From the UHGV virus genome UHGV-0132893: DNA of 64,000 nt, one strand, 5' to 3'. A program made the translations under genes and the position numbers. The number at the start of each line of letters is the position of its first letter. The stretch's first letter is position 1. This document shows positions 1,249 to 49,651 of this stretch, in pieces. Origin of the DNA: a virus. The notes under the pieces are model-generated. The model did no database searches, was not told where the DNA came from, and worked only from the letters and a program-made list of their open reading frames with translations.

Positions 1249-3483
1249 CTAAACACCGCAGCCCTCGCAATAAGCATCTTGCAGTGCAGATTTACCTACA
1301 CCAATGCGACTGTTAAGGTAGTACATGGTTTTCATACCTACCGAGTTGGCATAAATCATGTACTTCAAAGCTTGAGCCAATGATACCTTCTTAGCTTTTG
1401 CGTAGTCAACATAGAAATCTGAAGAGATAGCTTGACCAGTGAACTTTTGAACAATTGCATAACAATCAATCAGGTCAAAGGTGTCAATACCCCAAGCAAT
1501 TTCATATACATACTTCAACTCTTCATAATCTGGAACAATAAACAACACGTTACCAGTTGCAGACTTTTTAGTTAAAATAAAGTCACGAATTGGGTACAAG
1601 CCATTTGTCGTATTAGTTGCTAGTGAAGAACTCTCATTAGGCATGTAAGCTTCTAATACAGAGTTTCGGATTCCACCATTTTCTTTGATACGTTGTGCTA
1701 AGTCATCCCAATCATATCGTAGTTTTGCATCATGCTTTTCATCAATCTTCTTATTGGCTGTCTTTGGAGGAACCCAGCCTTCAGGATACTTAGTGAACTG
1801 CATATACTCAGGTACACCACGTTCTTTAGCAAGTCTCAGAGAGGCTTCGTGTAAGTAGTAAGAGTGCATCTCTGCAAGTTCATGAAGCTTTGTCTTACCT
1901 GCTCGTGAAGAGTAGTTCACGTAGTTCTTCGCAAGGTAATGAGCCACATTTGTAAGGCCAATCCCAACAGAACGACGCTTCTGAACATGGTTACGCATCG
2001 ACGGATACGGATAATCCATAAGGTCAATAACGGAGTCAACCATTGCAAGAGCATAATAAGCAACGTCAGCGTATTCATCTTCTGAAATTCTCCCTGCAAC
2101 CAAACTAGCTAGGAAGCAAAGAGCCACCTCACCATCCTCTTTCACAGCATCGTCTCTGTAAAGGTCTGTCTCTTTCTCAAAACCATACACTGGCAACACA
2201 ATTTCCATACAAAGATTTGACATCTTCAATGGTTCTTTAAATGGTGTATGTGTGTTTGCATTGTTAGTGAAGAATGGATACACACGACCTGTAGCATAAC
2301 GCTGTTGAATAAACAGCTTAGCAATTTCACGAGCCTTGACTCGTCTGTGCTTAACTCCTGAATGTACTGCGTGACCAACTGCCATAGCAAACTCATCAGC
2401 AGATGCTGTGTAGAACATGTCATAGAGTTTTGGTGCATCTTTGTAAGAGAATAGCAACCAATCTGTATCATACTGAACACACTGCCAGAAATAATCGTTT
2501 GTGCCGAATGAGTAGTCCATCTCATTAATACGTTTAGAAGGAACCGTTGTAGGGTGCTTCAAACGCAGTAAATCTTCAATCTGCGGGTCTAGAGCAGTGT
2601 AGAAGTTATTAGCTGAACCGCCACGACTCTTCTGTTTGTTTGCCTCTACAGATGAACGTACAAGCTTGTAATAAGGTAGTTTACCCATGTGCTCAATCGT
2701 ATTTTGACGGATACCATCACCAATAGTACGTGTCTCCATCAGCATACCAATACCAGCTTGCTTTGTGGTCATATCATAAGCAACCTTTGCAGCAATACCA
2801 AGAGACTCAGCAGTATCATTTGCCTTAATCAAACAGCATGACGCATAGCCCGATTTAGTTGCTCTTAACCCGTTTAAATAGGGCGTAGGAGCGTTAATCT
2901 TCAGGTCAGATAGGTAAGTGTACAGCTTGATAACATCTTGCAGTCTACGGTGCTTTGGTTGCTTCTCAAAGGCTTTCATAGCCATACCCATGAACATAAA
3001 TTGTGGTGACTCAAACAGTCTTCCCGTTTTAATATCACGGATACCGTACTTGTCTCTGAACTGTTTCAAGACTGCATAACCGTAAGAGATATCTTTTGAG
3101 TGCACGATGTAACCTTGCAGGTATTCAAGCTCTTCCTGTGAATAATCCATCTTCTCCCAAAGTCCTGCTCTCTCCATATTTTTAACGAAGGTAATCAGCG
3201 TAGGAACCTTAGTAAAGCCTCCAAAGGCTTCTTTGTAGATAATACCCAAAAGCAGTCGTCCAGCCATATCTGAGTACTCTTGAGTTTGTTTATCAACACA
3301 AACATCAATCATGGCTTGGTGCATCTCTTTTGTAGTGCAACCCTCATAGACACGTTTCATAGCTTCCATAGTGACTTCTGACCAGATAATTCCACGTTTA
3401 TCTGCCCATGATGCCCACTTATTCAGTCTTTCTGGGTCAAAGCTTACTACTGTACCATTTGATTTTTTAATTGTCTTAATCAT
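1249..3483 (-). CDS. nrdA: ribonucleotide reductase class I alpha subunit (NrdA)
   Basis: 744-aa ORF; N-terminal ATP-cone-like segment (VVSFDPERLNKWASWADKRG), C-terminal CEGCGV cysteines; adjacent to nrdB. Confidence 0.85.
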   Translation of the reverse strand: MIKTIKKSNGTVVSFDPERLNKWASWADKRGIIWSEVTMEAMKRVYEGCTTKEMHQAMIDVCVDKQTQEYSDMAGRLLLGIIYKEAFGGFTKVPTLITFVKNMERAGLWEKMDYSQEELEYLQGYIVHSKDISYGYAVLKQFRDKYGIRDIKTGRLFESPQFMFMGMAMKAFEKQPKHRRLQDVIKLYTYLSDLKINAPTPYLNGLRATKSGYASCCLIKANDTAESLGIAAKVAYDMTTKQAGIGMLMETRTIGDGIRQNTIEHMGKLPYYKLVRSSVEANKQKSRGGSANNFYTALDPQIEDLLRLKHPTTVPSKRINEMDYSFGTNDYFWQCVQYDTDWLLFSYKDAPKLYDMFYTASADEFAMAVGHAVHSGVKHRRVKAREIAKLFIQQRYATGRVYPFFTNNANTHTPFKEPLKMSNLCMEIVLPVYGFEKETDLYRDDAVKEDGEVALCFLASLVAGRISEDEYADVAYYALAMVDSVIDLMDYPYPSMRNHVQKRRSVGIGLTNVAHYLAKNYVNYSSRAGKTKLHELAEMHSYYLHEASLRLAKERGVPEYMQFTKYPEGWVPPKTANKKIDEKHDAKLRYDWDDLAQRIKENGGIRNSVLEAYMPNESSSLATNTTNGLYPIRDFILTKKSATGNVLFIVPDYEELKYVYEIAWGIDTFDLIDCYAIVQKFTGQAISSDFYVDYAKAKKVSLAQALKYMIYANSVGMKTMYYLNSRIGVGKSALQDAYCEGCGV

Positions 3484-11076: not shown

Positions 11077-11877
11077 TTAGTGCAGTTGCTCAGCAGACTC
11101 TTTTTCAGCCATAGCTGAGATTTGCTTCACAAAATCATCACCGAAGTTAATGCGTAGTTTCTCTTCAATGATTGAAGCACCGATGTTCACCAAAACATCA
11201 TTGATTGCTTGCATACTAACGCCACCAGTCATCTCTTCAATGAACTCAATACTTACACCCATCATCTGTGAAAGTTGGATTAGTGCAACGATATTCATCA
11301 TCGTAGAGATAGCTGGAATCATCAGTGCAACTTTCACCTGAAGAGGTTCTATATCAGCTACAGAGTCATTTTCAACAGCTTCTTCCAAAGACTCTTTAGT
11401 TTGCTGGATAATTTCTTTGATTCGTGGGCTTAACTCTTCTACGCCCCAATCAAGTTTTTCATATCGTGAAAGTTTCTCTTCCATGCGCTTCTCAAGAACT
11501 GCCATAACAGCACTTGTTGATGAGATTAGTGTGTCAATAAGGAAATCAGTATCCTTAGTCAGCAATAGTTCCTTTTCTTCATCTGACATCCTGATATAGT
11601 CATTCTTTTGCATTTCATAAAAAATGAACTCTGCAAGCGCATCAACACCGACTGCAATAGATGCAAGGGCAAGTGTAGTATCTGACAACATCATATTAAC
11701 CTGCTCTGCAAAAGCACCGTTATCAGTTTTATCTTCAGGCAAGTTATAGCTTTTTGGCATAAACTGTTCTGTATAGTTATTTCCACGAAGAATCATAGCC
11801 ATGCTTTCTACAGCATTGATTAAAAATGCTTCATCAATACCTTTTTCTTTAAGCATTTGGTCTACAGTAGTATTCAT
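11077..11877 (-). CDS. hypothetical protein
   Basis: 266-aa ORF. Confidence 0.45.
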   Translation of the reverse strand: MNTTVDQMLKEKGIDEAFLINAVESMAMILRGNNYTEQFMPKSYNLPEDKTDNGAFAEQVNMMLSDTTLALASIAVGVDALAEFIFYEMQKNDYIRMSDEEKELLLTKDTDFLIDTLISSTSAVMAVLEKRMEEKLSRYEKLDWGVEELSPRIKEIIQQTKESLEEAVENDSVADIEPLQVKVALMIPAISTMMNIVALIQLSQMMGVSIEFIEEMTGGVSMQAINDVLVNIGASIIEEKLRINFGDDFVKQISAMAEKESAEQLH

Positions 11878-11878
11878 A

Positions 11879-12301
11879 TTATTTCTCTCTCAGTTGGTTA
11901 AGTTTCTTTCTAGAGCATTTTAAGTTTTCAGATGAAGAAAAGTCAAGTGTCTTTTCAGAACGTGGATAGTAATGCCTGTCCCAAGAAGTTTCAACATCGT
12001 TAATCAGTGATGCTAGATTACACAGGTCTGTACCACTTTGCAACCTCTTTTTAAGAGAATCTAGTAAAGCAACTGTATCTTTAGCTTTACGTCTAGCTAT
12101 AGCAACATCTTTCATGTGCTCGAACACAGAGCATTTTAAGTCATCTTCATAGTCTTCTGATAACTCTATTTCATGTTGTATATCAACCATTCTCCTGTGA
12201 TGGTGAGCATATTCCCGTTGAGCAGCAATGTCAAGTTCTTCCAACTTCTGCAAAGCTCTAACAAAGTCAGCTATGTCTGGGTGAACAAACATTTTCTGCA
12301 T
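11879..12301 (-). CDS. hypothetical protein
   Basis: 140-aa ORF. Confidence 0.45.
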   Translation of the reverse strand: MQKMFVHPDIADFVRALQKLEELDIAAQREYAHHHRRMVDIQHEIELSEDYEDDLKCSVFEHMKDVAIARRKAKDTVALLDSLKKRLQSGTDLCNLASLINDVETSWDRHYYPRSEKTLDFSSSENLKCSRKKLNQLREK

Positions 12302-12475
12302 GTAAGCCTCTTTTAAGTAACTATTAAGTTTTAATCTTTTATCTTAACGTATTCTATACGTTATACTTTAAAGCTTTTTAAAAGCTATTAAATAATCTTT
12401 TAAGAGCTTTAAAGTATCTGTATAGTTAAACTGTTAAGTAACCTTTTAAGTAAAAACCCACTTCGCAAAGATTAA

Positions 12476-12500
12476 CACCTTGTCAAGTACATTGTCAACT
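12476..12500. promoter_or_regulatory. conserved intergenic motif caccTTGTCAAGTACaTTGTCAAC in divergent promoter region
   Basis: near-identical copy at 54560-54585; reverse complement contains TTGACAAGGTG also seen at 15265 and 19410. Confidence 0.4.
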
Positions 12501-12558
12501 TGCTTTTTATAATTTTTTGCAGTAATGTATGAGGTTAATGATTTTAGAGGGAGTAAAA

Positions 12559-15258
12559 ATGGAAAACGTAGATTTTAAAAACTTACATTTAGTTGGTGAT
12601 ACAGAAACTGATGGTTTACTCCTTGAGTTCACTAAAGTTCACGTAATGGCTTTCGCAGACTACAAATCTGACGACGAAGAACCACCAGTATGGGTCTTTA
12701 CTGATGAGCCTATTCTCGGTCACAAGTACACTAAGTACATCAAGGGTGGATTACGTGAAGGTATTGAGTTTGCGTTGAAGGCAAAACGACTTTGTATCCA
12801 TAATGGTCTCGGTTATGACTGGTGGGTTTTCAATCACATTGCACCGGATTTATGGAACTTTGATAACCCAAAATGTAAGCCGTGGAGTAATTTCTTTCAG
12901 GACTCTCTTATCCAGTCTCGTGTTCAGTGGATGGATAGACCAACTCCAAAGGGTTATAAAGGTGCTCATGGTTTGGCTGCATGGGGTGCTCGTGTTGGTG
13001 TTCGTAAGCCAGAGATTGAACATTGGGGTGTGTGGAATGCAGAAATCTTCACTCGTGTTGTAGAAGATATCCGTATTAACGCCAAAACTAAACGGGCACT
13101 TGATAACGAGTATCTCAAGCTTAAGAAGTGTGGTATAGACACTTATGAAACCTACATGCGAGCTAAAGAAACATCTTTCTGGATGAGTCAACAGGCTATC
13201 AATGGTTGGAAAGCTGATAAAGAGCTTATGGAGTTCCATGTAAAGGAACTTGACAAGTTGACTAATGAGCTTGCTTCAGAGGTTGAACCGCATCTGCCAC
13301 CAACTATTAAGACCAAAGGTAAAGTTACTGGAGAAGAGTTTGCAAAGGCTTGGAATGAGTATGTTGAAACATTCGGTCATGCAGATGGGTTGAAGAGAAT
13401 TACCAAGTATCCTAAGACAAAGTACCGTCAGCAGGTACGTAACGGTGAGATGCAGACATACGAAATCAAGCCATTTGGTAAGCCAACTACAAAGATTTTT
13501 AACATTGAAAAGAGAAATTGCTACACCCCAACCAACTCTGTAACTGGTGAAGAGTACAAGGAAGGTTTTGTAGCAATGAAAGATGCTCGTGCAATTTGCA
13601 ATGAGTTGAATGCAAAGATTGGTAAGAAATGCAAAGACTGGAAGCCAGTGAAAACAGTCAAAACTGTGAAGTACTATAACAGTCACGTTGTTAACCACTT
13701 TGGACTTGAGTCAAGTCGCTACACAGGTTTGATTGATGCACCATATACACCAATTGAGTTCGAAGTTTCTCGCATGACTCAGGTAGCAGTTGTTAAAGAC
13801 TACTTGAAATCAGTTGGTTGGATTCCAGATGACTGGAACTACAAGAAAGACTCAGATGGTCGCCCTGTCAAAGTTTGTCGTTTCAAAGACAATAAAAAGA
13901 TGATTACAAAACATCCTAAGTGGCAGGAAATGGTTGAGCGGTGTGGTTTGAGTTATGTTGAACATGAAGGTGTTCAGTACATTGAGCATAACTGGTCCGT
14001 GAAGAAATACACAGATTTGCTTGAACCTTGCTTAATCCGTACTTCACCAAAACTTACTGAATCATCTTATGATACGATTGAAGGTGAGCTTGGACAGAAG
14101 ATTGCTAAGTACTACACTTTGATGCACAGACGCAGAACTATTGAGAACTCAAAGGATGACGAGAAAGGTTGGCTGAACCAGATTCGTCCAGATGGTCGCC
14201 TTAGTGCTGGTGCAATGGTATTTGGTACTTCAACTGGACGTATGACACAATATGGTATTGTAAACGTACCGTCTGGTGCTGCTGTCTATGGGGAACCAAT
14301 GAGGGCAGTGTGGATTTGTGAAGAAGGTACTAATGTTGTCTCTGTAGACATGAACTCAGCCCAGCTAGTTCTCCTTTGTAACTTTATGGGTGACAAAGAC
14401 TTCACCAAAGCGGTAACGCAAGGTAAAGAAGAGATTGAGTTTATTCGTCAAGAAGATGGACGCTATTACTGCAAACATTTTGATGAGTACCTAAACCCAG
14501 AGATTGATAAGTACCTTCGCTATGACTCTGAGAATGACCTGTACGTTGTCTATTCAGGGACTGATGCACATACACTGAACAGTATTTACTTTAGCTTGAA
14601 TGATGAGCAGGACATCTTGACTTGTCGAGCTACTCAGGATGAGAATCTTCTTCATGAGATTAGCAAAGGTCGTAAGAAAGCTAAGAATGGTATCTATGCA
14701 CTGCTGTTCGGTGCAGGTGATGAGAAGTTTGCTAAGACGATTAAAGCTGCGACTACTCAGGAAGGTGCGCTGACTAAACAGACTTACTTTATACGTTTGC
14801 CTAAAATTAAGAAGCTGTTAGATGACTTGGAAGCTGACTACAAAGCAACTAAAAAGGCACTTGAAGAGGTGTTTGGTAAGACTGCTGCAATCTCTAAAGG
14901 GGGTTTTGTGAAGGTTGCTGGAGCTTGGTTGTGGTGTAAATCTCCACATAAGTTGTTGAATTATTTGCTCATGGGTTCGGAAAGTCAGATTCAAAATGAG
15001 GCAATTAACCTTGCTTGCCGTCGTATGATTGACGAAGGTTTGATGAAGTTGAACGGTCGCAAACCAGCTATAGGTGCTCGTTTATTGTGCTCCTATCACG
15101 ACGAGACAAGTTGGGAATGCCCAGAAAGTATGACGGCAGAGGTAAAGGCTGTCACTGATTGGTATTACGGTCAGGCCTCTAAGAACTTAGGACTAAAGAG
15201 TGAAACACTGGTAACTGGTACTGGTAAGGTTGGTAAAAGCTGGCTTGAAGTACACTAA
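12559..15258 (+). CDS. DNA polymerase, family A (Pol I / T7-like) with 3'-5' exonuclease domain
   Basis: Exo I motif LVGDTETDG; motif B RKKAKNGIYALLFGAG; motif C SYHDE; start set at ATG 12559 after GAGGGAG SD (ORF track 12529). Confidence 0.85.
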   Translation: MENVDFKNLHLVGDTETDGLLLEFTKVHVMAFADYKSDDEEPPVWVFTDEPILGHKYTKYIKGGLREGIEFALKAKRLCIHNGLGYDWWVFNHIAPDLWNFDNPKCKPWSNFFQDSLIQSRVQWMDRPTPKGYKGAHGLAAWGARVGVRKPEIEHWGVWNAEIFTRVVEDIRINAKTKRALDNEYLKLKKCGIDTYETYMRAKETSFWMSQQAINGWKADKELMEFHVKELDKLTNELASEVEPHLPPTIKTKGKVTGEEFAKAWNEYVETFGHADGLKRITKYPKTKYRQQVRNGEMQTYEIKPFGKPTTKIFNIEKRNCYTPTNSVTGEEYKEGFVAMKDARAICNELNAKIGKKCKDWKPVKTVKTVKYYNSHVVNHFGLESSRYTGLIDAPYTPIEFEVSRMTQVAVVKDYLKSVGWIPDDWNYKKDSDGRPVKVCRFKDNKKMITKHPKWQEMVERCGLSYVEHEGVQYIEHNWSVKKYTDLLEPCLIRTSPKLTESSYDTIEGELGQKIAKYYTLMHRRRTIENSKDDEKGWLNQIRPDGRLSAGAMVFGTSTGRMTQYGIVNVPSGAAVYGEPMRAVWICEEGTNVVSVDMNSAQLVLLCNFMGDKDFTKAVTQGKEEIEFIRQEDGRYYCKHFDEYLNPEIDKYLRYDSENDLYVVYSGTDAHTLNSIYFSLNDEQDILTCRATQDENLLHEISKGRKKAKNGIYALLFGAGDEKFAKTIKAATTQEGALTKQTYFIRLPKIKKLLDDLEADYKATKKALEEVFGKTAAISKGGFVKVAGAWLWCKSPHKLLNYLLMGSESQIQNEAINLACRRMIDEGLMKLNGRKPAIGARLLCSYHDETSWECPESMTAEVKAVTDWYYGQASKNLGLKSETLVTGTGKVGKSWLEVH

Positions 15259-15264
15259 TTAGTA

Positions 15265-15299
15265 TTGACAAGGTGCTCATGGAAGAGTACCTTATACTG
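15265..15299 (+). promoter_or_regulatory. promoter-like element TTGACAAGGTG-N-TATACT (23-nt spacing)
   Basis: TTGACA at 15265 and TATACT at 15294 upstream of ORF 15320; spacing is non-canonical for sigma70. Confidence 0.3.
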
Positions 15300-15319
15300 T
15301 ATCTTGTATAGGAGGTCTC

Positions 15320-15532
15320 ATGACACTTTCAGACGTTATTCAGCAACTTCACGACAACTGCTATACTCCAGAGTTGATTCAGGAGATGCTTATTGTGGCG
15401 ATGCCTAGTAAGTTCGTAAAAGGTTTTAATAGTGAATCTTTAAGGTCTGCACATATCCTTATTGTTGACGGTAAGATTGCAAGAGACCGTACAGGAGTCC
15501 TTAATGGTGAACGTATTATCATTGACCTCTGA
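15320..15532 (+). CDS. hypothetical protein
   Basis: 70-aa ORF. Confidence 0.4.
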   Translation: MTLSDVIQQLHDNCYTPELIQEMLIVAMPSKFVKGFNSESLRSAHILIVDGKIARDRTGVLNGERIIIDL

Positions 15533-15549
15533 ATATTAGGGATACCAAA

Positions 15550-15705
15550 ATGAAACGCAAAGTAAAATTATTTAGTTTATATGGAAGAGTCGGTAAAGGT
15601 TTTGATTGGCAACTGCTACGTTCGAATGTTAAAAGCAACGAATTAGCACAACTTATTATAGACTATCGACGAACGTACAGAGAAGTAGAACATCGTGAAC
15701 AGTAA
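15550..15705 (+). CDS. hypothetical small basic protein (51 aa), not in ORF track
   Basis: MKRKVKLFSLYGRVGKGF...; AGGGA SD-like upstream. Confidence 0.3.
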   Translation: MKRKVKLFSLYGRVGKGFDWQLLRSNVKSNELAQLIIDYRRTYREVEHREQ

Positions 15706-15718
15706 TAGGAGAAGTATT

Positions 15719-15955
15719 ATGTGGAAAGCAGTAATTGTGCTTGGTGTTATCTTTCTATCTGGCTGTAATCCATCTTACGAGGACAAAAACGCTTCTTATA
15801 GCCTCCCACCAGAGATGCAAGATTGCAAAGTCTATAAGTTAAATGGGGATGCAATAAGCACAGATGTTATTGTTGTCAGATGTCCAAACTCTCAAACAAC
15901 AACATCTTATAGATATGGTAAAAATAGTCAATCACACACTACGGTTATTGAGTGA
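15719..15955 (+). CDS. small lipoprotein (lipobox LSGC)
   Basis: MWKAVIVLGVIFLSGC... signal peptide plus lipobox Cys; AGGAGAA SD; ORF track 15695 start is probably too far upstream. Confidence 0.5.
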   Translation: MWKAVIVLGVIFLSGCNPSYEDKNASYSLPPEMQDCKVYKLNGDAISTDVIVVRCPNSQTTTSYRYGKNSQSHTTVIE

Positions 15956-15965
15956 GGTTTTTACG

Positions 15966-16172
15966 ATGGAAGTCCTAGTAAACTATACCTATTGTTATGA
16001 TGTTGTTCACTCAACTACAACCGTAGCTCAACGTAACCCAATCGTCCCACGAGAGGGTGAGTTGGTTCGAATCGATGGTTGGACTTACACTGTGGAAAGC
16101 ATCATTCATAAGTTTGATGTTGCTGGCGATGTTCAAGTTATTGACGTAGAGATTGGTGGTAAAAGAAAATGA
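15966..16172 (+). CDS. hypothetical protein
   Basis: 68 aa from ATG 15966 (ORF track 15864 overlaps lipoprotein gene). Confidence 0.35.
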   Translation: MEVLVNYTYCYDVVHSTTTVAQRNPIVPREGELVRIDGWTYTVESIIHKFDVAGDVQVIDVEIGGKRK

Positions 16173-16327
16173 AATCCAAGCAAACAATGACAGATGCAAT
16201 CTTCACAGTACACAGTTTCGAAAGGCTGTACATTAAAGATGCAAAAGATACACCAAAATGCGTTGTGCATTTCATTAAAAGGCGTAGTAACATGTCATAT
16301 ATGAAATCTGACAAAGGTAAGAGATAA
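16169..16327 (+). CDS. hypothetical small protein (52 aa), not in ORF track
   Basis: ATGA start/stop overlap with upstream ORF; MKSKQTMTDAIF... Confidence 0.3.
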   Translation: MKSKQTMTDAIFTVHSFERLYIKDAKDTPKCVVHFIKRRSNMSYMKSDKGKR

Positions 16328-16519
16328 ATGAACAAAGAAGATAAGTATAAAAATGCTATACGAACTCCAGATGGAAAGGTTCAATCCTTCATCCTGACAG
16401 TTGGTGGAAAGCCGTTTCGTTGCCACTGCGGAGCAAACTGTTTCCATAAACCAGATAAAAATGACTTAGAACTTTACGCATGTAATGCTTGCAATACTTG
16501 GTATCACTCAGAGGAATAA
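16328..16519 (+). CDS. Cys-rich small protein (zinc-finger-like)
   Basis: CHCGANCFH...CNACNTWYH spacing. Confidence 0.4.
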   Translation: MNKEDKYKNAIRTPDGKVQSFILTVGGKPFRCHCGANCFHKPDKNDLELYACNACNTWYHSEE

Positions 16520-16520
16520 A

Positions 16521-17621
16521 ATGACAACACTGTACAAACAAAATAAAGACGGTTCCTTCAACATCTGGTCATGCGGTGCTATAGGTAACAAAGTTATTAC
16601 AACCTATGGTAAAGAAAATGGCAAGATGATGTTTGAAGAGTATACAGCAGAACCTAAAAACATCGGTAAAAAGAATGAACGTAATGCTGAACAGCAAGCT
16701 CTCTTTGAAGTTGCTGCTAAGTATAAAAAGCAAGTTGACCGTAAAGGTTATGCTTACACGAAAGAGTCTGCACAGAATACTGAGAAGGTAGGTGTACAGC
16801 TTGCTCATGATGCTGCAAAGGTTAGTCATGCAAAGTATTTGATATTTCCTGCTGATGCTCAACCAAAACTTGATGGTGTCCGTTGTAGAATTTCAAGAAA
16901 TAATGACTCAGTTAGTTTCACGGCTTACTCTCGTGAGAATACTGTTTACAACGTCCCAGCAGAACTAATCCCAGATTTGCTTTTGTTGCTTAAATTGCAC
17001 CCACAAGTCGAAGACTTTGATGGTGAGATTTATGCTCACGGTTGGGACTTAGAAGATATTGTGTCTATGATTAAGAATGCTGACAATCCAGACCGACATC
17101 TACTCCAGTTCTACTGGTACGATATCTGTGACAGCACTAAGACGTGGCCTGAGCGTAGAGATATTATTGAGACTTCACCTATTGTTGAGCTTGGGGATAC
17201 CTGTAGAGTGGTTCCTGTACAGACTATCCGTGTAAATTCTTGGGAAGAGTTTGATGAAGCCCATGATAAGTGGGTTGAAGCTAAGTTTGAAGGTGCAATG
17301 TACCGTTCAATCTCTGAAGACTCCTTCTATGAGTGTGGTCACCGTTCATACTTCTTGATTAAGCACAAGAAGATGCACACTGAAGAGTTTAAAGTAACTG
17401 GTGTAAAGACTGATAAACGTGGTCATGGTAAGTTCGTCGTAGAGACTCTTCCTAACGTCTTTGTAGATGTCTCATGGAAGACTACTCATGAGAAGAAACA
17501 GTATCTTGCTGAACATCCTGAAGAGTTTATCGGGAAACCTTTAACTGTTCAGTTCCAGAAGATGACTCGTAAGGGTTCTTTACAGTTCCCTGTTGGGTTA
17601 GTTATTCGAGATTACGAATAA
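16521..17621 (+). CDS. ATP-dependent DNA ligase
   Basis: adenylation motif I KLDGVRC; start set at ATG 16521 after GAGGAA SD (ORF track 16485). Confidence 0.7.
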   Translation: MTTLYKQNKDGSFNIWSCGAIGNKVITTYGKENGKMMFEEYTAEPKNIGKKNERNAEQQALFEVAAKYKKQVDRKGYAYTKESAQNTEKVGVQLAHDAAKVSHAKYLIFPADAQPKLDGVRCRISRNNDSVSFTAYSRENTVYNVPAELIPDLLLLLKLHPQVEDFDGEIYAHGWDLEDIVSMIKNADNPDRHLLQFYWYDICDSTKTWPERRDIIETSPIVELGDTCRVVPVQTIRVNSWEEFDEAHDKWVEAKFEGAMYRSISEDSFYECGHRSYFLIKHKKMHTEEFKVTGVKTDKRGHGKFVVETLPNVFVDVSWKTTHEKKQYLAEHPEEFIGKPLTVQFQKMTRKGSLQFPVGLVIRDYE

Positions 17622-17628
17622 AAAGTTG

Positions 17629-17656
17629 TTGACATAGAAAATTTGGTGAGTATACT
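17629..17656 (+). promoter_or_regulatory. sigma70-type promoter TTGACA-N16-TATACT
   Basis: canonical hexamers and spacing; fires into repeat elements R1/R2 and ORF 18066. Confidence 0.5.
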
Positions 17657-17688
17657 GAGCAGCATAAACCAACGGGTACTCACCAGCA

Positions 17689-17846
17689 TCACTTAAGAGT
17701 CTTCTAAGAGGGTTTTTAAGTGATGTGAGGTATGGTAGTGTTCTGTTCGGTACGGTGTGGCACGGTAATGCTAGGTCTGGTCAGGTCGGGTCAGGTGCGG
17801 TACAGTATGGGTAGTTAGTCTCATCTACATTAAAATGAGACTTACC
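17689..17846. repeat. GGTNN pentamer-array element R1 (5' box, about 16 pentamers, 3' hairpin)
   Basis: ggtat ggtag tgttc ... ggtca ggtcg ggtca periodicity; hairpin agtctcat/atgagact with loop ctacattaaa. Confidence 0.7.
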
Positions 17847-17990
17847 TTTTTAAAAGGTCTTTAAGAGGGTTTTTTAATGAGGTAGGGTAAAGTAATGTTT
17901 GGTCTGGTTTGGTAAGGCGCGGTCTGGTTTGGTAAGGTAAGGTTCGGTATGGTATGGGTGGATGGTAGTAGCCACGTTAAAAATCTACCA
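17847..17990. repeat. GGTNN pentamer-array element R2
   Basis: ggtct ggttt ggtaa ggcgc ggtct ggttt ggtaa ggtaa ...; hairpin tggtag/ctacca. Confidence 0.7.
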
Positions 17991-18047
17991 AGTTTCTAAA
18001 GAGTCTTCTGTTGAGGGTTCTTTACAAACAACTTAACAATCAACTAA

Positions 18048-18653
<606 letters not shown>

Positions 18654-18655
18654 TT

Positions 18656-19096
18656 ATGAATACAAAAGCATTAGCAGCAAAGTTTAGTTACGGTGACACT
18701 GTATCACACTCTGAGATGGACACCTTCTTAGGTATTGTGAAGCCAACTTATCAAGGTGACATTGTTAAGTACGAAGATGAAATGAAGGCTTATGCGCTTA
18801 CACGTCTAAACCGACTTGAGAAGTTTATTGAGAAGCTTCTTAAAGAAGAGAAGATTTATCTGGTTGCTTCAATGGGTGTTGGTTATCGTGTGGTTGAACC
18901 TAAGCATCAAGCAACTATTGCAAAACGTAAAATGTCTGGTAAGATTGGTCGCGCTTTAAAGCAAGCCACTCAAGCGATTGAGAATGTGAACACTATGGCA
19001 CTTAGCCATCAAGAACGCTCACGACTGATTGAACAGCAAAACCATTTAGCTGCTATGAAAGCTAACATTAACAAGCAACGTAGAAAACCTTTCTAA
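18656..19096 (+). CDS. hypothetical protein (cassette gene 2)
   Basis: 146-aa ORF, 2-nt gap from upstream gene. Confidence 0.45.
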   Translation: MNTKALAAKFSYGDTVSHSEMDTFLGIVKPTYQGDIVKYEDEMKAYALTRLNRLEKFIEKLLKEEKIYLVASMGVGYRVVEPKHQATIAKRKMSGKIGRALKQATQAIENVNTMALSHQERSRLIEQQNHLAAMKANINKQRRKPF

Positions 19097-19107
19097 GTTG
19101 ACTAGGT

Positions 19108-19130
19108 AGCCTCTTCGGAGGCTCCTTTTT
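19108..19130 (+). terminator. rho-independent terminator
   Basis: agcctc-ttcg-gaggct stem then cc-TTTTT. Confidence 0.55.
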
Positions 19131-19260
19131 AAAAGGTCTTTAAGAGGGTCTTTTAATAAGGTAAGGCACGGTTATGTCAGGTATGGTACGGTACGGTTAG
19201 GTAAGGTGAGGCGGAGTAAGGTATGGGTAGTTAATCGGAGCTACATTAAAATTCGATTAC
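19126..19260. repeat. GGTNN pentamer-array element R3
   Basis: 5' box like R2, 3' hairpin like R1 with compensatory stem (taatcg/cgatta). Confidence 0.7.
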
Positions 19261-19392
19261 ATCACTTAAGAGTCTTTTAAGAGGGTTTTTAAGTGAGGTG
19301 TGGCACGGTAATGTTAGGTAGGGTCAGGTCAGGTCAGGTGAGGTAAGGTGATGTATGGAAGGATGGCAGTAGCCTTATAAAAAATCTGCCAA
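19261..19392. repeat. GGTNN pentamer-array element R4
   Basis: 5' box like R1, 3' hairpin like R2 with compensatory stem (tggcag/ctgcca). Confidence 0.7.
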
Positions 19393-19482
19393 ATAAGCTA
19401 TAAAATCTGTTGACAAGTCAGGTGTTATAGCTTATTTTTATACTCAATGTAATACAAAATTTAATATAACTTTGAGGTCATT

Positions 19483-19866
19483 ATGAAAAAGATTTTATTA
19501 ACTGCTGCAATGGTTATGGCAATAAATTTACCAGTCAATGCAACAGAACTTCCCAATGTGGACTTATCAGGTGTTCCAGAAGATACTTGCCAGATTGTAA
19601 AAGGTGTTGCTCTAGCTAATGGTGAGTTACTTAAACCAATCTCTGAAGAGTCTTTAACAGAGATGACTGATAAAGTAACTGACTACCAGTATCGTGTTCT
19701 TGCAGAATATTTCCTGCAATCTGCAAACATTAAAGAGAAGCACCCTGATGATATTGATGTACAGGCTATGCTCAATCATCGTATCCAGTTTAAAGAAGAT
19801 TTGATGCAAAAAGCTATGTATGGTGTTGAGTATTTCTTAGAAAACAGAAGCTGCACAGGTATTTGA
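19483..19866 (+). CDS. secreted/periplasmic protein with Sec signal peptide
   Basis: MKKILLTAAMVMAINLPVNA-TELP: n-region, hydrophobic core, VNA cleavage-like site. Confidence 0.5.
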   Translation: MKKILLTAAMVMAINLPVNATELPNVDLSGVPEDTCQIVKGVALANGELLKPISEESLTEMTDKVTDYQYRVLAEYFLQSANIKEKHPDDIDVQAMLNHRIQFKEDLMQKAMYGVEYFLENRSCTGI

Positions 19867-22968: not shown

Positions 22969-23010
22969 ACAAAAAAGGCTCCTTTTTACGGGAGCCTTAA
23001 ATTTTATTTT
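22969..23010. terminator. bidirectional terminator between convergent genes
   Basis: aaggctcc-tttttacg-ggagcctt hairpin flanked by A-run and T-run. Confidence 0.5.
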
Positions 23011-23375
23011 TCAGTATTCTTTGTGTTCTTTTCAGTAATAGCTTGCAAGGCTGATACTGATTGAGCCAGATTGTTCACACTGTCAGAGAATTTATCAAGG
23101 GTTTTGGTAAGTTTTGCGTTTTCACCCTTAACATTCTCTAACTGAACTTTCTGGTTCTCCATCCCTAGCTGAATCAATCTCATGTCAGACTGTAAATCAC
23201 GAATAGCTGAATAGTTACTTTTGGAATAATTATCTAGCTGCTGTAACTTTGTTGTGACAGACACTTCTTGTTTACCACTTGAAACCTGCATCGTGGTATA
23301 CATCCCAATAACACTAAAAATACCAACTACAATTGCACCAATATTATTTTTAAAAGCTTCCTCTAGCCACTTCAT
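23004..23375 (-). CDS. membrane-anchored coiled-coil protein (spanin- or chaperone-like)
   Basis: N-terminal TM helix IGAIVVGIFSVIGMYTT then coiled-coil; immediately downstream of tail fibre genes. Confidence 0.4.
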   Translation of the reverse strand: MKWLEEAFKNNIGAIVVGIFSVIGMYTTMQVSSGKQEVSVTTKLQQLDNYSKSNYSAIRDLQSDMRLIQLGMENQKVQLENVKGENAKLTKTLDKFSDSVNNLAQSVSALQAITEKNTKNTEK

Positions 23376-23649: not shown

Positions 23650-26199
23650 TTAAGCAGTTCTTACCCAAGCCATTAACTTATAGAACTGGTTAGTAACACT
23701 GAATGCTGAACCAGAACCAGTACCACCTGTTTTACCACTAACTGTGTGGCTGTGAGCACCAATACCAACAGTGTGGCTGTGGTTACCTGTTGTATTCGTT
23801 ACACCAGACCAGTTTCTTGATGCGTTGAAGTTGACAGGGATACCATTAGTAAAGTTATTACCAGTATACCCTTTAGAACCTGCCTGACTACCGAGGTGGA
23901 ATGCACCACTTGCTGTGTAGAATCTGCTAGTGTCACTCCTGAAGTAACCAAATGAACCAGTAATCTCCATAGTACCTCTGTTGTGGTTATGGTTACCAGT
24001 TGTGCTAGAAGTCTTAGTACCATAATCAAATGATGAAGTGGTAGCAGAGAAACTGTGTGTATGTGAAGGTAAGTTACCAACAGATAACGTTACAGAGTCT
24101 GAACCACCAGTTGTAGCAACATCTGAACCGTTTGCTGCTGCAATTCTAATAGTTCTACCAACACCATTATTCAGGTACGTCCAAGTTAACCCAGGAAGTG
24201 CTGTATTAGGGTTAACATTACTGTTAAACCACGTTACAATACCTACTGGATAGATTTTATTCAGGTCTGTAGAGTCACTAATTGCTTCTGCAATCTTCTG
24301 GTCAGTTTCTGCTTTAGTGTATGCACCAATATCTGAAGGGGTTGGTTTTTGCAAACTTGTGTAGTATTTTGCAATTGTACCCTTCACAATACCTTGTGGA
24401 GCATCATCAAATGTTTGTGGGACTTCAAACAACTGCACACTTGCATTGCTAGAAGATTGAACTCTTGATGTTGTACCATTTTGGAACGTACCGACCCTAC
24501 AGTAAATATCGTAAGTGTCGCCAGATGTATTAACATAACCAATATCTGTGACAATGGTATTCTCTGCGATTCTCCAAGCTACAACATTTAAACCTTTTGG
24601 GTTGTTATTTGATGTTCGTAAAATAATCTCACACTTACCTGCTTGATGTGGCATGTTAATATTAAAACCTGACCCACCAAACACTTCAATCACCGCAGTA
24701 GATGCGGATTGCGGCATTACAACAGTAGCAATTTTAGCCCACTTTTCACCGCTTCCATTATTGAAACCAGTACTTCTGATTCTCAGGTATCTACTATCAC
24801 TAGCACTTTGTGTAAAGTATCTAGCATCTAAGTTAGAGAAATCTGAAGGTTGAACTTGTCCAGCAATAGTCAATGTTTTGTTAATGTATGATGTTGTATT
24901 TCCGAGAACCAATTGGGTTCCGGAATAACTGTTATTTAGGGTAACATCATTCGTATCAGCACCACCAACACCAATCCACCATCTTGATACATTAGTAGTG
25001 TCCACACCACGAATATATAATGGTCTATTCTGAGTAGAGTTTTTAACAATCAGACCTTCATTATCCGTAACAACTGTCTGTACACCATTAAAAGTATTCC
25101 TTGCATTAGTTCTTGCAATTGTACTTAATGTTGCTGCCGGAATATATCTAGAGTCAATGTTAGCCCAATCTGAAGGTTGAACTTGTCCAGTGATTCTGAC
25201 ATTTTTATTTGCTGATACTCCAGCAGCATCTAAGACCAAAGAGGTGTTAGTGGTATAGTTGTAGATAGTTACACCAGCACCTGAACTACCTTTACCAAGA
25301 TACCATAAGTTTCCACCTTCATAATCTTTTGCAAGTAGATACAGGGATTCGTTTGCTGATGCACATTGCAGTGTGATAGCAGCAGCATTTGAAATAACAC
25401 TCATAGTCCTAAATGTGTTAGCACCTGTAAAAGTATTATTGCCAGCTAACTGTGCAAATCTCTGATTAGCAACTGTCTGAGTGAAGTATCTAGCATCTAA
25501 GTTAGAGAAATCTGAAGGTTGAACTTGACCAGTGATTGCTAAAGACTTATTAACAGAGACATTACTTGCAACAGTCAAGGCTGAGTTGTATTTGTTATTG
25601 TACAGCTTTACTTCGTCAGAGCCATTACTACCAATACCAACCCACCATCTAGCCGAACCATCTAGGTTTACACCTTCGATATATTGTGCATTATTTGCAT
25701 TTTGGTTTCTAAGGCGAAGTAAGTTAGCATCACCTTGAATATTTTGAGTTCCAGAGAATGTGTTTGTGATAGCAAGTCTTGCGTATCTTGCATCATTCTC
25801 TTCATTAGTCCTCATACCAAGCTCATTAGGACTTGGCTTATTCAGAGTATGATAAACAGTTGCTGACCTTGAAGCATCTGCAATAGTTAGTTTAAGACCA
25901 TTTGCGTTAATTTTAAAAGTCTTTAAAATATCCCCAATAGTAATCTCAGAAGAGCCTGTAGGGTCAAATACAGACTTTCCACCGTAAAGTAACTTGACAA
26001 TACCTAAATCCCCAGTCATAGCGCTTCCAGCAATCTGAACAAACCTTTCTAGTTTGAAGGAAGCTAAGAAGTCTTGATAGGTCATTCTGCGGTCTTCATC
26101 ACCCAACATTTCAGGTCTTTTCTTAACTCTGATGTGCAATAGGTCTTCTGAACGAATTGTGTCGATTGAGTTTAATTGACTCAATTTGTAATCTGCCAT
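23650..26199 (-). CDS. long tail fibre protein with GxHxH C-terminal repeats
   Basis: 849 aa; three internal repeats ITGQVQPSDFSNLDARYFTQ; C-terminal GNHNHN/GNHSHT/GAHSHT motifs. Confidence 0.7.
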   Translation of the reverse strand: MADYKLSQLNSIDTIRSEDLLHIRVKKRPEMLGDEDRRMTYQDFLASFKLERFVQIAGSAMTGDLGIVKLLYGGKSVFDPTGSSEITIGDILKTFKINANGLKLTIADASRSATVYHTLNKPSPNELGMRTNEENDARYARLAITNTFSGTQNIQGDANLLRLRNQNANNAQYIEGVNLDGSARWWVGIGSNGSDEVKLYNNKYNSALTVASNVSVNKSLAITGQVQPSDFSNLDARYFTQTVANQRFAQLAGNNTFTGANTFRTMSVISNAAAITLQCASANESLYLLAKDYEGGNLWYLGKGSSGAGVTIYNYTTNTSLVLDAAGVSANKNVRITGQVQPSDWANIDSRYIPAATLSTIARTNARNTFNGVQTVVTDNEGLIVKNSTQNRPLYIRGVDTTNVSRWWIGVGGADTNDVTLNNSYSGTQLVLGNTTSYINKTLTIAGQVQPSDFSNLDARYFTQSASDSRYLRIRSTGFNNGSGEKWAKIATVVMPQSASTAVIEVFGGSGFNINMPHQAGKCEIILRTSNNNPKGLNVVAWRIAENTIVTDIGYVNTSGDTYDIYCRVGTFQNGTTSRVQSSSNASVQLFEVPQTFDDAPQGIVKGTIAKYYTSLQKPTPSDIGAYTKAETDQKIAEAISDSTDLNKIYPVGIVTWFNSNVNPNTALPGLTWTYLNNGVGRTIRIAAANGSDVATTGGSDSVTLSVGNLPSHTHSFSATTSSFDYGTKTSSTTGNHNHNRGTMEITGSFGYFRSDTSRFYTASGAFHLGSQAGSKGYTGNNFTNGIPVNFNASRNWSGVTNTTGNHSHTVGIGAHSHTVSGKTGGTGSGSAFSVTNQFYKLMAWVRTA

Positions 26200-26245
26200 T
26201 ATGAATTTTCCTCTTAAAAGGGGCTATAAAGCCCCTGTAAAGAAA

Positions 26246-27421
26246 TTAAGCTGTTCTCTGCCACACATACACTACAAAAGATGGCTGCTCAACACTGAAT
26301 GCTTGACCACCACCAACAGAACCAGTTGTCCCTGAGTGTGTATGCTCAGAGCTAGAAACAGTAACAGTGCCTGTATGACTGTGCGAACCAATATTAACAG
26401 TGTGGCTGTGAGCACCAATTGCGACAGTATGACTATGAGCACCAAATGATGCAGTTGTACCTGAGAAGCTATGGGTGTGAGCACCAGCTAAATCAGTATA
26501 CATAGCATTACCAACACCAGCATCAGCAGATGCAGTAATAGCATTTGTGCCACCCCTATCATTACCCCTCATAGGAACTCTATGGTTGTGGTTACCAGCA
26601 TTACTTGTTGTGCCACTAAACGTGTGAGTGTGAGCACCAGCACTATTAGTCGTTTTTGTACCGTAATCAAAAGTTGATGTGCTTTTTGAACCATAATCAA
26701 AACTAGAGATAGATACACTTGCAGAGTGTGTATGACCACCACCTGTTAGGTAGATAGAGTGAGTATGTGCTGGTAAATTATTATTTGTTAATGCTACAGT
26801 CTGAGAACCAAACATTGAACCAACAGGTCTAGAATCTGTATCATAACCAACTAGTGCCCTACCTTTAGAAACTAACTCCCAAGTGCCACCACAAAGCAAG
26901 TAAGTGGATGGGTTAGCAGAGTTAACAGACAGATGAATAGTCCCCACTGGATATGATGCTTGGATAGCTTTGTATAAGTTATTCACTGCTCTCGCTGTAG
27001 CATACTTATCAGCATCTTCATTGTACAGATTGGATGTTGTCCAGTTCTGAACATTACTTAAACCGACCTGTGCTTTCGTTGTGTTATGTGGGTTACTTTT
27101 GTCGTCAATATGTTGCTGAATTAAGTTATTCACTTCCTCTGACGACATAATTTGTAGATTTGCTCTTGCCTCAGCAACATTCACAATGTCTGACAAGTTA
27201 TTAGCTGCAACTAATTGAAGAGAGTTAATAACATTATCAAGACCCACTTGTGATTTAGTTACACCATGAGGATTATTCCTCAGAGATGCGTGAGGTGCTA
27301 ACAACTGCTCAAGCGTACATCTTTTATCCTCAACACCTTGCTTAAGGTGGAAGATATCACTCAAATCAATTGGTAAGGCCGCTTGTGGCAAGGCACTAAT
27401 TTGGATTTCACCTACTGCCAT
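26246..27421 (-). CDS. tail fibre protein with GxHxH repeats
   Basis: 391 aa; GGHTHS, GAHTHTFSG, GNHNHR, GAHSHTVAIGAHSHTVNIGSHSHT; C-terminus similar to the 849-aa fibre. Confidence 0.65.
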   Translation of the reverse strand: MAVGEIQISALPQAALPIDLSDIFHLKQGVEDKRCTLEQLLAPHASLRNNPHGVTKSQVGLDNVINSLQLVAANNLSDIVNVAEARANLQIMSSEEVNNLIQQHIDDKSNPHNTTKAQVGLSNVQNWTTSNLYNEDADKYATARAVNNLYKAIQASYPVGTIHLSVNSANPSTYLLCGGTWELVSKGRALVGYDTDSRPVGSMFGSQTVALTNNNLPAHTHSIYLTGGGHTHSASVSISSFDYGSKSTSTFDYGTKTTNSAGAHTHTFSGTTSNAGNHNHRVPMRGNDRGGTNAITASADAGVGNAMYTDLAGAHTHSFSGTTASFGAHSHTVAIGAHSHTVNIGSHSHTGTVTVSSSEHTHSGTTGSVGGGQAFSVEQPSFVVYVWQRTA

Positions 27422-47144: not shown

Positions 47145-47220
47145 TGGAGAATCCGAAGGGACTCGAACCCTTATAAACCTGTTTTGCAGACAGGCACATA
47201 GCCATTTCTGTCACGGATTC
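47145..47220 (-). tRNA. tRNA-Cys (GCA)
   Basis: TGG (CCA) start on plus strand, T-arm aaggg-actcgaa-ccctt, anticodon arm cctgt-tttgcag-acagg. Confidence 0.6.
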
Positions 47221-47224
47221 AAAT

Positions 47225-47317
47225 TGGAGGAAGATACCAGACTTGAACTGGTACACCGATTTCTCAGCTACTGGCAGTTTAGCAAACTGCTCCCTTACCT
47301 TTTAGGGTTAATCTTCC
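47225..47317 (-). tRNA. tRNA-Ser (GCU), long variable arm
   Basis: T-arm accag-acttgaa-ctggt; anticodon arm gcagt-ttagcaa-actgc; acceptor ggaagat/atcttcc. Confidence 0.6.
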
Positions 47318-47319
47318 AT

Positions 47320-48054
47320 TTATTTCTGTAATGCGTTCTTCATTTCTGGTGTTGCAATAGTGTCAATTACACCAGTTTTACAAGCATCATCAAACCAGTC
47401 TGGTAAGATACCTGCTAAGAACCCATTGATATTCGTTTTAAGGTACTCTGCAATAAGAGAAGCTTCTTCTTCAATCATCTGCACAACTTCATCTGCATAA
47501 GCTGTAATCTTTGAGATACCTTCATTAATCTTACTAACAGCTTGGTTAGCTAAATCAGAAATAGTATCAAGACCTTTGTCAATAGCGTCTTGTAAGTCAC
47601 TTAATACATCATTAACACCGTCTAGTGCACTGTTAATCGTATCAATAGCTTTTTGGCCATACTCTGTAGCAACACCCATAATACCACTAAATGGTGTACA
47701 ACCAACTTGTTCACCTGCTGCACCCATAACATTAGAATAGCCTTTTGCTACCTGCATACGTGATGAGAACTCATCAATGGACTTTTGACCGTAATCTGTC
47801 AGTGTTTTGGTAGTTGATGTAGTGCTTGTCAGACTCGTGGTAAAGCTGTTAAGCAGAACTGTTGTAAGTCCAGCAGCAACAAGCTTATCCTTTACTGTAG
47901 GGTCTGATACAGAGCTAATAGAGCTTACAAGTGATGTAGAGGCAGCTACGGTTCCACCGAGAACTGCTGCACCAGTAATAAGGGGGTTAGAAAACCCTTT
48001 ACCAGTTTTTAAGAGATTGAAAATCTCCTTACCTTGTTCTGTCATCTCTTTCAT
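47320..48054 (-). CDS. hypothetical protein (Ser/Thr-rich N-terminus, helical C-terminus)
   Basis: ORF track 47320..48117 overlaps a tRNA; start moved to internal Met at 48054. Confidence 0.45.
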   Translation of the reverse strand: MKEMTEQGKEIFNLLKTGKGFSNPLITGAAVLGGTVAASTSLVSSISSVSDPTVKDKLVAAGLTTVLLNSFTTSLTSTTSTTKTLTDYGQKSIDEFSSRMQVAKGYSNVMGAAGEQVGCTPFSGIMGVATEYGQKAIDTINSALDGVNDVLSDLQDAIDKGLDTISDLANQAVSKINEGISKITAYADEVVQMIEEEASLIAEYLKTNINGFLAGILPDWFDDACKTGVIDTIATPEMKNALQK

Positions 48055-48070
48055 TAAGCACCTTTGAAAT

Positions 48071-48147
48071 TGGTAGTCCAGTGGGATTTGAACCCTCTTC
48101 TCATGTTTTTCAGACACGCGCTTTAACCATATAAGCTACTTGGACTA
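48071..48147 (-). tRNA. tRNA, tentatively Phe (GAA)
   Basis: T-loop atttgaa, acceptor tagtcca/tggacta; anticodon loop ttttcag with 4/5-bp stem. Confidence 0.5.
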
Positions 48148-48152
48148 TAAAT

Positions 48153-48228
48153 TGGGGTGACCTACGGGATTTGAACCCGTATAGACCATGTTCACAGCAT
48201 GGGTCATTACCATTTATGATAAGGCCAC
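48153..48228 (-). tRNA. tRNA-His (GUG)
   Basis: T-arm acggg-atttgaa-cccgt; anticodon arm ccatg-ttcacag-catgg. Confidence 0.6.
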
Positions 48229-48259
48229 ATTTAAGGACTCTCGTAAGAATCCTTAGAAG

Positions 48260-48335
48260 TGGCAGCGGCATAAGGATTTGAACCTTAATAGGACAGCTTC
48301 AGAGACTGCTGCATTGCCAGTTATGCTATACCGCT
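48260..48335 (-). tRNA. tRNA, anticodon not resolved
   Basis: T-arm taagg-atttgaa-cctta, D-stem gcat/atgc, acceptor agcggca/(t)accgct. Confidence 0.5.
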
Positions 48336-48340
48336 AAATT

Positions 48341-48418: not shown

Positions 48419-48421
48419 CAT

Positions 48422-48497: not shown

Positions 48498-48505
48498 TTA
48501 AATCT

Positions 48506-49302: not shown

Positions 49303-49319
49303 AGTATCACCTGTTTATC

Positions 49320-49395: not shown

Positions 49396-49401
49396 AAAAA
49401 T

Positions 49402-49650: not shown

Positions 49651-49651
49651 T

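Follow-up and report, generated by a model that had tools for sequence, protein, structure and literature searches.

The open reading frame (ORF) at positions 15719–15955 of the virus genome UHGV-0132893, of which the 64,000-nucleotide stretch analysed here is called the window, proves to be a genuine gene, predicted from its sequence to encode a small membrane-anchored lipoprotein. The product belongs to DUF4884 (phrog_902), a phage-restricted lipoprotein family that is out of the ordinary in its size and spread and that stands apart from the known exclusion lipoproteins and from spanins. By analogy, we tentatively propose that it faces the periplasm and either protects the envelope of the infected cell or excludes other phages by a route independent of any receptor, a reading to which we give somewhat less than an even chance. 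What was known before is the Pfam DUF entry and the presence, in about 200 sequenced relatives, of 'hypothetical proteins' 76–96% identical to the window protein.

The lipoprotein gene and its product

The DNA around the lipoprotein gene is 93% identical to that of Escherichia phages EF202P1 and vB_EcoM-LTH02 and matches 262 phage records, nearly all of them Felixounavirus (Felix O1-like myoviruses). The gene order of the window is collinear with that of Salmonella phage Mushroom and of Felix O1.

The N-terminus of the encoded protein consists of a basic n-region (MWK), an uncharged h-region (AVIVLGVIF) and the lipobox LSG immediately before Cys16. The residue at +2 after this cysteine is Asn, and there is no Asp retention signal. 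A six-frame regular-expression scan of the window found a lipoprotein signal in this ORF only, and the lipobox is present in 245 of 249 sampled members of the DUF4884 family. Comparison of the gene with its counterparts in Felix O1 and Mushroom gave non-synonymous and synonymous divergences (dN and dS) of 0.08 and 0.68, a dN/dS ratio of 0.12, and the ratio between LTH02 and Felix O1 was 0.08. These ratios indicate that the reading frame is under purifying selection. The single occurrence in 64 kb, the retention of the cysteine by nearly all homologues and the low dN/dS together indicate that the lipoprotein signal is more than a chance resemblance. An earlier note, made from the letters of this DNA alone, had read a lipoprotein signal peptide with a lipobox here, and these results bear it out. 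Its coordinates, from ATG 15719 to the stop codon ending at 15955, also stand, while the mature protein that it put at about 62 amino acids has 63.

The Shine-Dalgarno sequence AGGAG (15707–15711) lies just 3′ of the stop codon of the upstream ORF (15703–15705). The same mature lipoprotein results whether translation starts at ATG 15719 or at an in-frame GTG at 15695. In the window protein the mature domain comprises a linker of about 10 residues followed by Y-x-LP-x-x-M-x-D-C36-K-V-Y and, after an intervening stretch, V-V-R-C55-P-N-S-x-T-T-T-x-Y-x-x-G-K. A few frameshifted or truncated copies of the gene were seen elsewhere: one is in an unverified GenBank record (Salmonella phage GE_vB_B3, 5968–6228 of the locus examined), and two metagenome-derived copies of the protein, 64 amino acids long, diverge after residue ~45. 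Such copies are due either to errors of sequencing or to the gene being lost now and then.

Membership and signature of the DUF4884 family

The window protein matches phrog_902, a family of unknown function, over residues 1–76 with an E value of 2e-16. In precomputed tables every close and distant homologue is assigned to PF16225.11, which bears the name DUF4884. When the window protein and 10 relatives were run through hmmscan against a Pfam release containing PF16225.10, no DUF4884 match was returned, because this model is older than the version.11 of the precomputed tables. The 49-position PF16225.10 model matches gp6 of phage Henu8 at 24 bits, under its cut-off of 30. It misses the whole Felix-type subfamily, so that membership of DUF4884 depends on the Pfam release consulted. 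Henu8 gp6 aligns to the family profile with an hhalign probability of 95%, with both cysteines and the G-K motif paired.

An exhaustive profile search returned 1271 clusters (50% identity) at a threshold of E ≤ 1e-3, of which 754 reached E ≤ 1e-10. The proteins in the best 150 clusters are all 71–154 amino acids long, and the match mostly begins at or near the N-terminus. Exactly three cysteines are found in the mature part of 215 of the 245 lipobox-bearing members. In two family alignments C36, C55 and P56 are invariant, and C16, P30, N57, T60 and K68 nearly so. The family signature thus comprises the lipobox, a linker of about 10 residues, Y-x-L-P-x-E-L-x-D-C-K-x-Y, a variable turn, and V-V-R-C-P-N-S-x-T-S-T-x-Y-x-x-G-K. 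Most members also have a C-terminal V-V-I-D-G-V-x-Y, which is cut short in the Felix O1 group and occurs more than once in a few members. The window protein both matches the family model and carries the lipobox and the D-C-K-x-Y...R-C-P-N-S...G-K pattern with its two invariant cysteines.

Other assignments were considered and rejected. A sub-threshold Pfam match to Zn_ribbon_InsA (E 0.008, residues 52–73) falls on the C-P-N-S motif, and a zinc knuckle is impossible there because the motif carries a single cysteine. Searches of NCBIfam gave no match for the window protein; for other family members the best E values, 0.016–0.23, were to lipoprotein or conjugation and secretion families (TrbK, EexN, LptM). 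An identity as a conjugative entry-exclusion lipoprotein of the TrbK or EexN kind was not adopted, the matches being at E 0.03–0.04 to one or two members and not to the window protein.

Predicted structure

An AlphaFold2 model built from a 115-sequence alignment has a mean predicted local distance difference test score (pLDDT) of 71 and a predicted template modelling score (pTM) of 0.44, and consists of the signal helix and five short strands. Strands 37–42 and 49–54 form a hairpin whose register sets Cys36 opposite Cys55. As the two residues face each other across the modelled hairpin, they may form a disulfide staple in the periplasm. A Foldseek search of the PDB returned nothing under an E value of 1. 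Matches in BFVD were to family members only, from Yersinia phage fHe-Yen9-03, Aeromonas phages Aeh1 and phiAS5, Vibrio phage JSF10 and Acinetobacter phage ME3.

Distribution and gene neighbourhoods

The family was found by tblastn in 586 phage records, and structure comparison and further searches added more lineages. About 200 Felixounavirus records encode a protein at least 60% identical to the window lipoprotein, and 295 records of Vibrio T5-like Demerecviridae contain a family member. Other carriers are the jumbo phages Asteriusvirus and Eneladusvirus, Acinetobacter Saclayvirus, Stephanstirmvirinae and Vibrio N4-like Schitoviridae, the T4-like Aeh1 and phiAS5 (Aeromonas) and Acj61 (Acinetobacter), the rV5-like CR3 and phiTE, and, through Henu8, Drexlerviridae. 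These lineages (Felix O1-, T4-, T5-, T1-, N4-, rV5- and phi92-like, jumbo and Acinetobacter phages) are unrelated to one another and mostly virulent. Among 72,556 plasmids tblastn gave two partial matches, both in Acinetobacter plasmids, and a search of 185,579 species genomes with a narrow peptide pattern only gave one locus. A copy in Paraburkholderia is part of a block that agrees in gene order with metagenome contigs of 271–418 kb that carry HNH-endonuclease and fibre-like genes. DUF4884 is therefore nearly absent outside phages.

Gene neighbourhoods were compared over about 13 independent genomic contexts. An all-against-all BLASTP comparison of the neighbours at seven loci found no conserved partner gene, and in every one of the contexts the DUF4884 gene stands alone amid early or accessory genes. 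Its neighbours across the contexts include genes for ligases, polynucleotide kinase, RNA ligase, Ser/Thr phosphatases, an origin-binding protein and RdgC. In the Vibrio T5-like phages the gene lies between those for the origin-binding protein and a ligase, and in one context it directly adjoins a gene for the anti-Pycsar protein Apyc1. No receptor-binding, tail-fibre or lysis gene adjoins it in any of the contexts. An envelope-related gene (for PspA/IM30, a Band_7 protein, an Lpp-like lipoprotein or a transmembrane coiled-coil protein) is nearby in four of them, which is no more than a weak hint.

The jumbo coliphages encode a second small lipoprotein two genes 3′ of the DUF4884 gene. It is unrelated to the first, has five cysteines and belongs to phrog_31263; examples are g528 of fEgEco12 (3114–3389 of its locus) and its counterpart in phage UB (4614–4886 of its locus). 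In fEgEco12 the DUF4884 protein and the phrog_31263 protein are both annotated as 'lytic conversion lipoprotein'.

Comparison with Llp, Cor and Rtp45

The earlier note had compared the window protein with T5 Llp and phi80 Cor and suggested that it masks the receptor of its own phage. A lipoprotein of the Llp, Cor or Rtp45 type would bind, on the periplasmic face, an outer-membrane protein that serves as terminal receptor, and by switching the surface loops of that protein would abolish phage binding. We consider such a role for the window protein improbable, notwithstanding a number of similarities. Like T5 Llp and the Cor proteins of T1, phi80, N15 and HK022, it is a prolipoprotein of about 75–78 amino acids with a lipobox, a mature domain of about 60 amino acids and cysteines capable of forming a disulfide, and like them it would be made by the phage before lysis and face the periplasm. 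Size class, type of anchor and the probable intramolecular disulfide therefore agree with a receptor mask, as does the short linker, which would keep the domain close against the membrane. In one genome record a family member bears the name 'lytic conversion lipoprotein', a matter of annotation only. Llp and Cor share an intramolecular disulfide, and llp lies directly 3′ of the receptor-binding gene of T5 (PMC9586334). The cysteine pair of Llp and Cor lies close to the two ends of the mature chain, whereas that of DUF4884 closes a 20-residue hairpin.

Profile comparisons were run with and without the signal peptides. When these were included, hhalign gave misleadingly high probabilities of 91% for Llp and 83% for Cor; the alignment with Llp reached 13 columns into the mature protein (P-x-D-I-x-C-x-x-Y), and that with Rtp45 covered 17 columns of signal peptide only. 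When mature domains alone were compared, the values were 1.6% for Llp (8 columns), 0.1% for Cor and 0.1% for Rtp45, while Henu8 gp6, the positive control, gave 85%. A profile search of the PDB met Llp only in the signal peptide, with an E value of 5.1, and no PDB fold matched the model. The comparison with Llp and Cor that the earlier note had proposed thus reveals no similarity of the mature domains.

Gene position and receptor use also argue against a receptor mask. The genes cor and rtp45, like llp, adjoin receptor-binding genes, and neither in the window, where the tail-fibre genes (23650–27421, opposite strand) lie about 8 kb away, nor in any other context is the DUF4884 gene beside genes of this kind. 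The phages that carry family members use receptors unrelated to one another. FhuA is the target of Llp and Cor, whereas reliance on lipopolysaccharide (LPS), and on no protein receptor, is reported for Felix O1-type phages (PMC8594841), so that a periplasmic one-to-one mask of their own receptor would have no obvious substrate. In the T1-like phage Henu8 (49.9 kb), a canonical cor gene lies beside the tail-tip and receptor-binding locus, a holin-lysin-spanin cassette lies elsewhere, and a separate DUF4884 gene is found among small early genes near pnk. These three separate loci amount to a decisive natural experiment that sets DUF4884 apart from both Cor and the spanins. The parallel drawn with Llp and Cor, as lipoproteins that mask the receptor of their own phage, is accordingly unsupported by mature sequence, fold, locus and receptor use.

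Rtp45, the exclusion lipoprotein of phage Rtp, binds LptDE (PMC12685063). This protein, of about 6 kDa, acts on the outer membrane from its periplasmic side, its effect is restricted to LptD-using phages, and its gene lies in a tail-tip and receptor-binding locus. It demonstrates that the target of such a lipoprotein may be an essential and conserved machine instead of a transporter that the cell can spare.

Genome setting and timing

In the window the lipoprotein gene is the fourth of seven tightly packed genes on the same strand between the genes for DNA polymerase and DNA ligase (Table 1), among replication genes as the earlier note had placed it. A survey of Felix O1 transcripts by reverse transcription PCR (RT-PCR) found that the polymerase gene is transcribed within 5 min and that transcripts of the flanking ORFs 88, 89, 90, 93 and 96 peak at 25 min (PMC3185647). 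A consensus scan of 11800–19600 for promoters and terminators gave counts no higher than in shuffled sequence, and is therefore uninformative about timing.

Table 1. Positions in the window of the lipoprotein gene, its parts and the genes that bound its block
Feature	Position	Strand	Basis
DNA polymerase gene, starts same-strand block	12529..15258	+	context
Alternative in-frame GTG start, 86-amino-acid precursor	15695..15697	+	matches annotated start of Felix O1 ORF91 and Mushroom gp42
Shine-Dalgarno AGGAG, 7 nucleotides 5′ of ATG 15719	15707..15711	+	read from sequence
Prolipoprotein coding sequence, 78 codons plus the stop TGA 15953–15955	15719..15955	+	ORF list and sequence; phrog_902 / Pfam DUF4884 member
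Predicted signal peptide, residues 1–15, lipobox L13-S14-G15 before Cys16	15719..15763	+	sequence; lipobox kept in 245/249 family members
Cys16 codon TGT, predicted lipid-modified mature N-terminus	15764..15766	+	sequence; column nearly invariant in two family alignments
Mature 63-amino-acid domain	15764..15952	+	alignments; AlphaFold2 model, pLDDT 71, five short beta strands predicted
Cys36 codon, family-invariant, predicted disulfide partner of Cys55	15824..15826	+	invariant column; register of the model
Cys55 codon, invariant, within R-C-P-N-S signature	15881..15883	+	family alignments
DNA ligase ORF, ends same-strand block	16485..17621	+	context

Several other features of the genome were observed. 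The DNA polymerase gene is intact here (909 amino acids), while in Mushroom it is split, and in several relatives an HNH endonuclease gene is inserted at its end; the stretch between the polymerase and ligase genes is a Felixounavirus hotspot of homing-endonuclease insertion. The ORF at 19483–19866 (+) encodes a 127-amino-acid protein of phrog_4332 (unknown function) with a signal peptide lacking a lipobox (MKKILLTAAMVMAINLPVNA...), a second predicted exported protein of the early region. As in Felix O1 and Mushroom, 26 tRNA genes, at 47145–52398 (–), are arranged in two blocks around the holin gene. Just 3′ of the endolysin gene, at ~57640–59340 (+), a segment is exactly duplicated in tandem (period 849 nucleotides), which doubles the 129-amino-acid ORFs at 57850–58239 and 58699–59088; Mushroom has two ORFs only at this place. 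The duplication could be a recent event or an artefact of assembly.

Comparison with spanins

A small lipoprotein predicted for the outer membrane could also be the outer-membrane subunit of a spanin or some other accessory of lysis, and a homologue in Vibrio phage PhiImVa-1 is labelled 'putative spanin' in one record. In being a small lipoprotein predicted for that membrane the DUF4884 protein resembles the o-subunits of λ Rz1 and T4 PseT.3 type and those of Felixounavirus. It differs from them in that its sequence is unrelated and that its gene has no adjacent or overlapping inner-membrane partner and is far from the lysis genes. In Mushroom, annotated by the Center for Phage Technology, an overlapped pair of i- and o-spanin genes lies next to the polynucleotide kinase gene. 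The i-spanin is anchored at its N-terminus and its match to phrog_1152 ('Rz-like spanin') has an E value of 6e-41, and the o-spanin is a different lipoprotein from the one studied here. This separate locus of 511 bp is full-length in 245 Felixounavirus records, including the close relatives REP6, HMD-P10 and SeKF_63. Since it is found in close relatives and falls outside the 64-kb window, the present genome probably has the pair as well.

The neighbourhood of the gene offers no partner for a spanin. The four ORFs nearest to it in the window have no membrane segment (maximum Kyte-Doolittle mean over 19 residues, 0.8), none of the five small ORFs that lie with it between polymerase and ligase has such a segment either, a membrane-anchored neighbour is absent from 11 of 12 contexts, and no partner gene is conserved. 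The holin gene (48506–49063, –) is 33 kb away and the endolysin gene (56943–57407, +) 41 kb away; that the gene is not beside the endolysin had been noted before. With signal peptides removed, hhalign found no similarity between the mature family profile and the Felix o-spanin, the flanking genes peak in mid-infection and not late, and Henu8 has a spanin of its own in its lysis cassette. A spanin or lysis function is thus exceedingly improbable, in agreement with the earlier view that an o-spanin role was the less likely one.

One other protein of the window has the architecture of an i-spanin. The ORF at 23004–23375 (–), directly 3′ of the large tail-fibre gene (23650–26199), encodes 123 amino acids, which include a membrane segment at the N-terminus and a long coiled coil; the product belongs to phrog_4038 (unknown function) and matches an Rz-like spanin weakly, with an E value of 0.009. 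It was rejected as a distant partner of the lipoprotein, as it lies 7 kb off, on the other strand and beside a tail-fibre gene, in a genus with a canonical pair.

Discussion

The wide spread of the DUF4884 family, its lack of linkage to receptor-binding genes and its sharply conserved signature make it probable that the family addresses a feature shared by many Gram-negative envelopes. Our preferred, still tentative, reading is protection of the envelope or receptor-independent exclusion from the periplasmic side. From established lipoprotein biology, the precursor would be exported, acylated and cleaved at Cys16, and the Asn at +2 would direct it to the outer membrane, where the short linker would keep the domain close to the membrane. 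DsbA would form the Cys36–Cys55 bond in the periplasm and so staple the hairpin. Made together with the replication genes, the protein would then bind, from the periplasmic side, a component shared by many Gram-negative hosts or by incoming phages, rather than the phage's own receptor. A cell already infected would be protected, either because a second phage is blocked after adsorption or because the envelope is stabilized until lysis. The effect would be like that of Llp, Cor or Rtp45, without membership of those families.

Superinfection exclusion in this broader, receptor-independent sense is plausible by analogy. The characterized early periplasm-exposed proteins of virulent coliphages are mainly exclusion or lysis-inhibition factors, such as Sp, Imm and RI of T4. 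T4 Spackle (Sp) and Imm, and Ltp of Streptococcus phage TP-J34, are early envelope proteins that block a superinfecting phage after adsorption without masking a receptor; Ltp is itself a lipoprotein, and Sp and Imm are not. The functional class of Sp, Imm and Ltp is, on these parallels, the most likely guess at the role of DUF4884, although none of the three families surfaced in the Pfam, PHROG and PDB searches of the window protein. T5 Llp provides a precedent for an early-made, periplasm-exposed exclusion lipoprotein in a virulent coliphage (PMC9586334, PMC12685063).

Several points weigh against an exclusion function. It is argued from analogy and base rates and not from evidence specific to the protein. 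In the literature on DUF4884/PF16225 and on phage lipoproteins we found mentions in annotation only and no functional study, and the RT-PCR survey of Felix O1 lists ORF91, the orthologue, as 'not tested' (PMC3185647). Since the structural model is of moderate quality and unlike any solved fold, no target can be read from it, and the conserved motif could be purely structural. The residue at +2 is Asp in 39 of the 245 lipobox-bearing members, including those of the jumbo coliphages (C-D-A-S). In Enterobacteriaceae, Asp at this position favours retention in the inner membrane. The outer-membrane site is therefore not constant in the family, and the function may need no particular membrane. Such latitude would fit a target that spans or fills the periplasm: a trans-envelope machine, the cell wall or the entry apparatus of an incoming phage.

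The same observations can be read as host takeover or counter-defence, in which the lipoprotein would reprogramme or silence a conserved component of the host envelope and the exclusion of phages would not be its selected function. Candidate targets are the Bam, Lpt and Lol machines, Tol-Pal, regulators of peptidoglycan hydrolases, an envelope-stress sensor or a membrane-embedded defence system. That phages infecting Enterobacteria, Vibrio, Aeromonas, Acinetobacter and Burkholderiales all keep the signature points to a target that these hosts share, and the low dN/dS gives no sign of the diversification expected of an arms race. The location in accessory islands, once directly beside the anti-Pycsar gene, and the membrane-stress and scaffold genes nearby in four of the contexts are also in keeping with takeover. 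No target can be named, however, the protein resembles neither characterized inhibitors nor solved folds, and the associations with neighbours are anecdotal and not conserved. We regard takeover as rather unlikely.

An exclusion or a takeover function would be united in a more general proposal, namely that DUF4884 is a new and widespread class of envelope effector. Its members would be disulfide-stapled mini-lipoproteins, deployed early by at least nine virulent lineages against a conserved envelope machine or the entry apparatus of an incoming phage, which would give receptor-independent, cross-family exclusion or takeover by a fold unlike that of Llp, Cor and Rtp45. In so complete a form the proposal is doubtful.

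If the gene has no phenotype, DUF4884 is one more conserved hypothetical gene. To our knowledge, small periplasmic lipoproteins are the only structurally understood means by which phages shut the door behind them, as with Llp on FhuA and Rtp45 on LptDE. Llp and Rtp45 are each tied to one receptor, whereas DUF4884, with more than 1200 diverged clusters, is far wider. Its partner could reveal a general mechanism of exclusion or takeover, and could mark a point at which an essential envelope machine is vulnerable. Biocontrol of Salmonella and E. coli makes wide use of Felix O1-like phages. Should the lipoprotein be an exclusion factor, co-infecting phages would be affected, which would be relevant to the design of phage cocktails.

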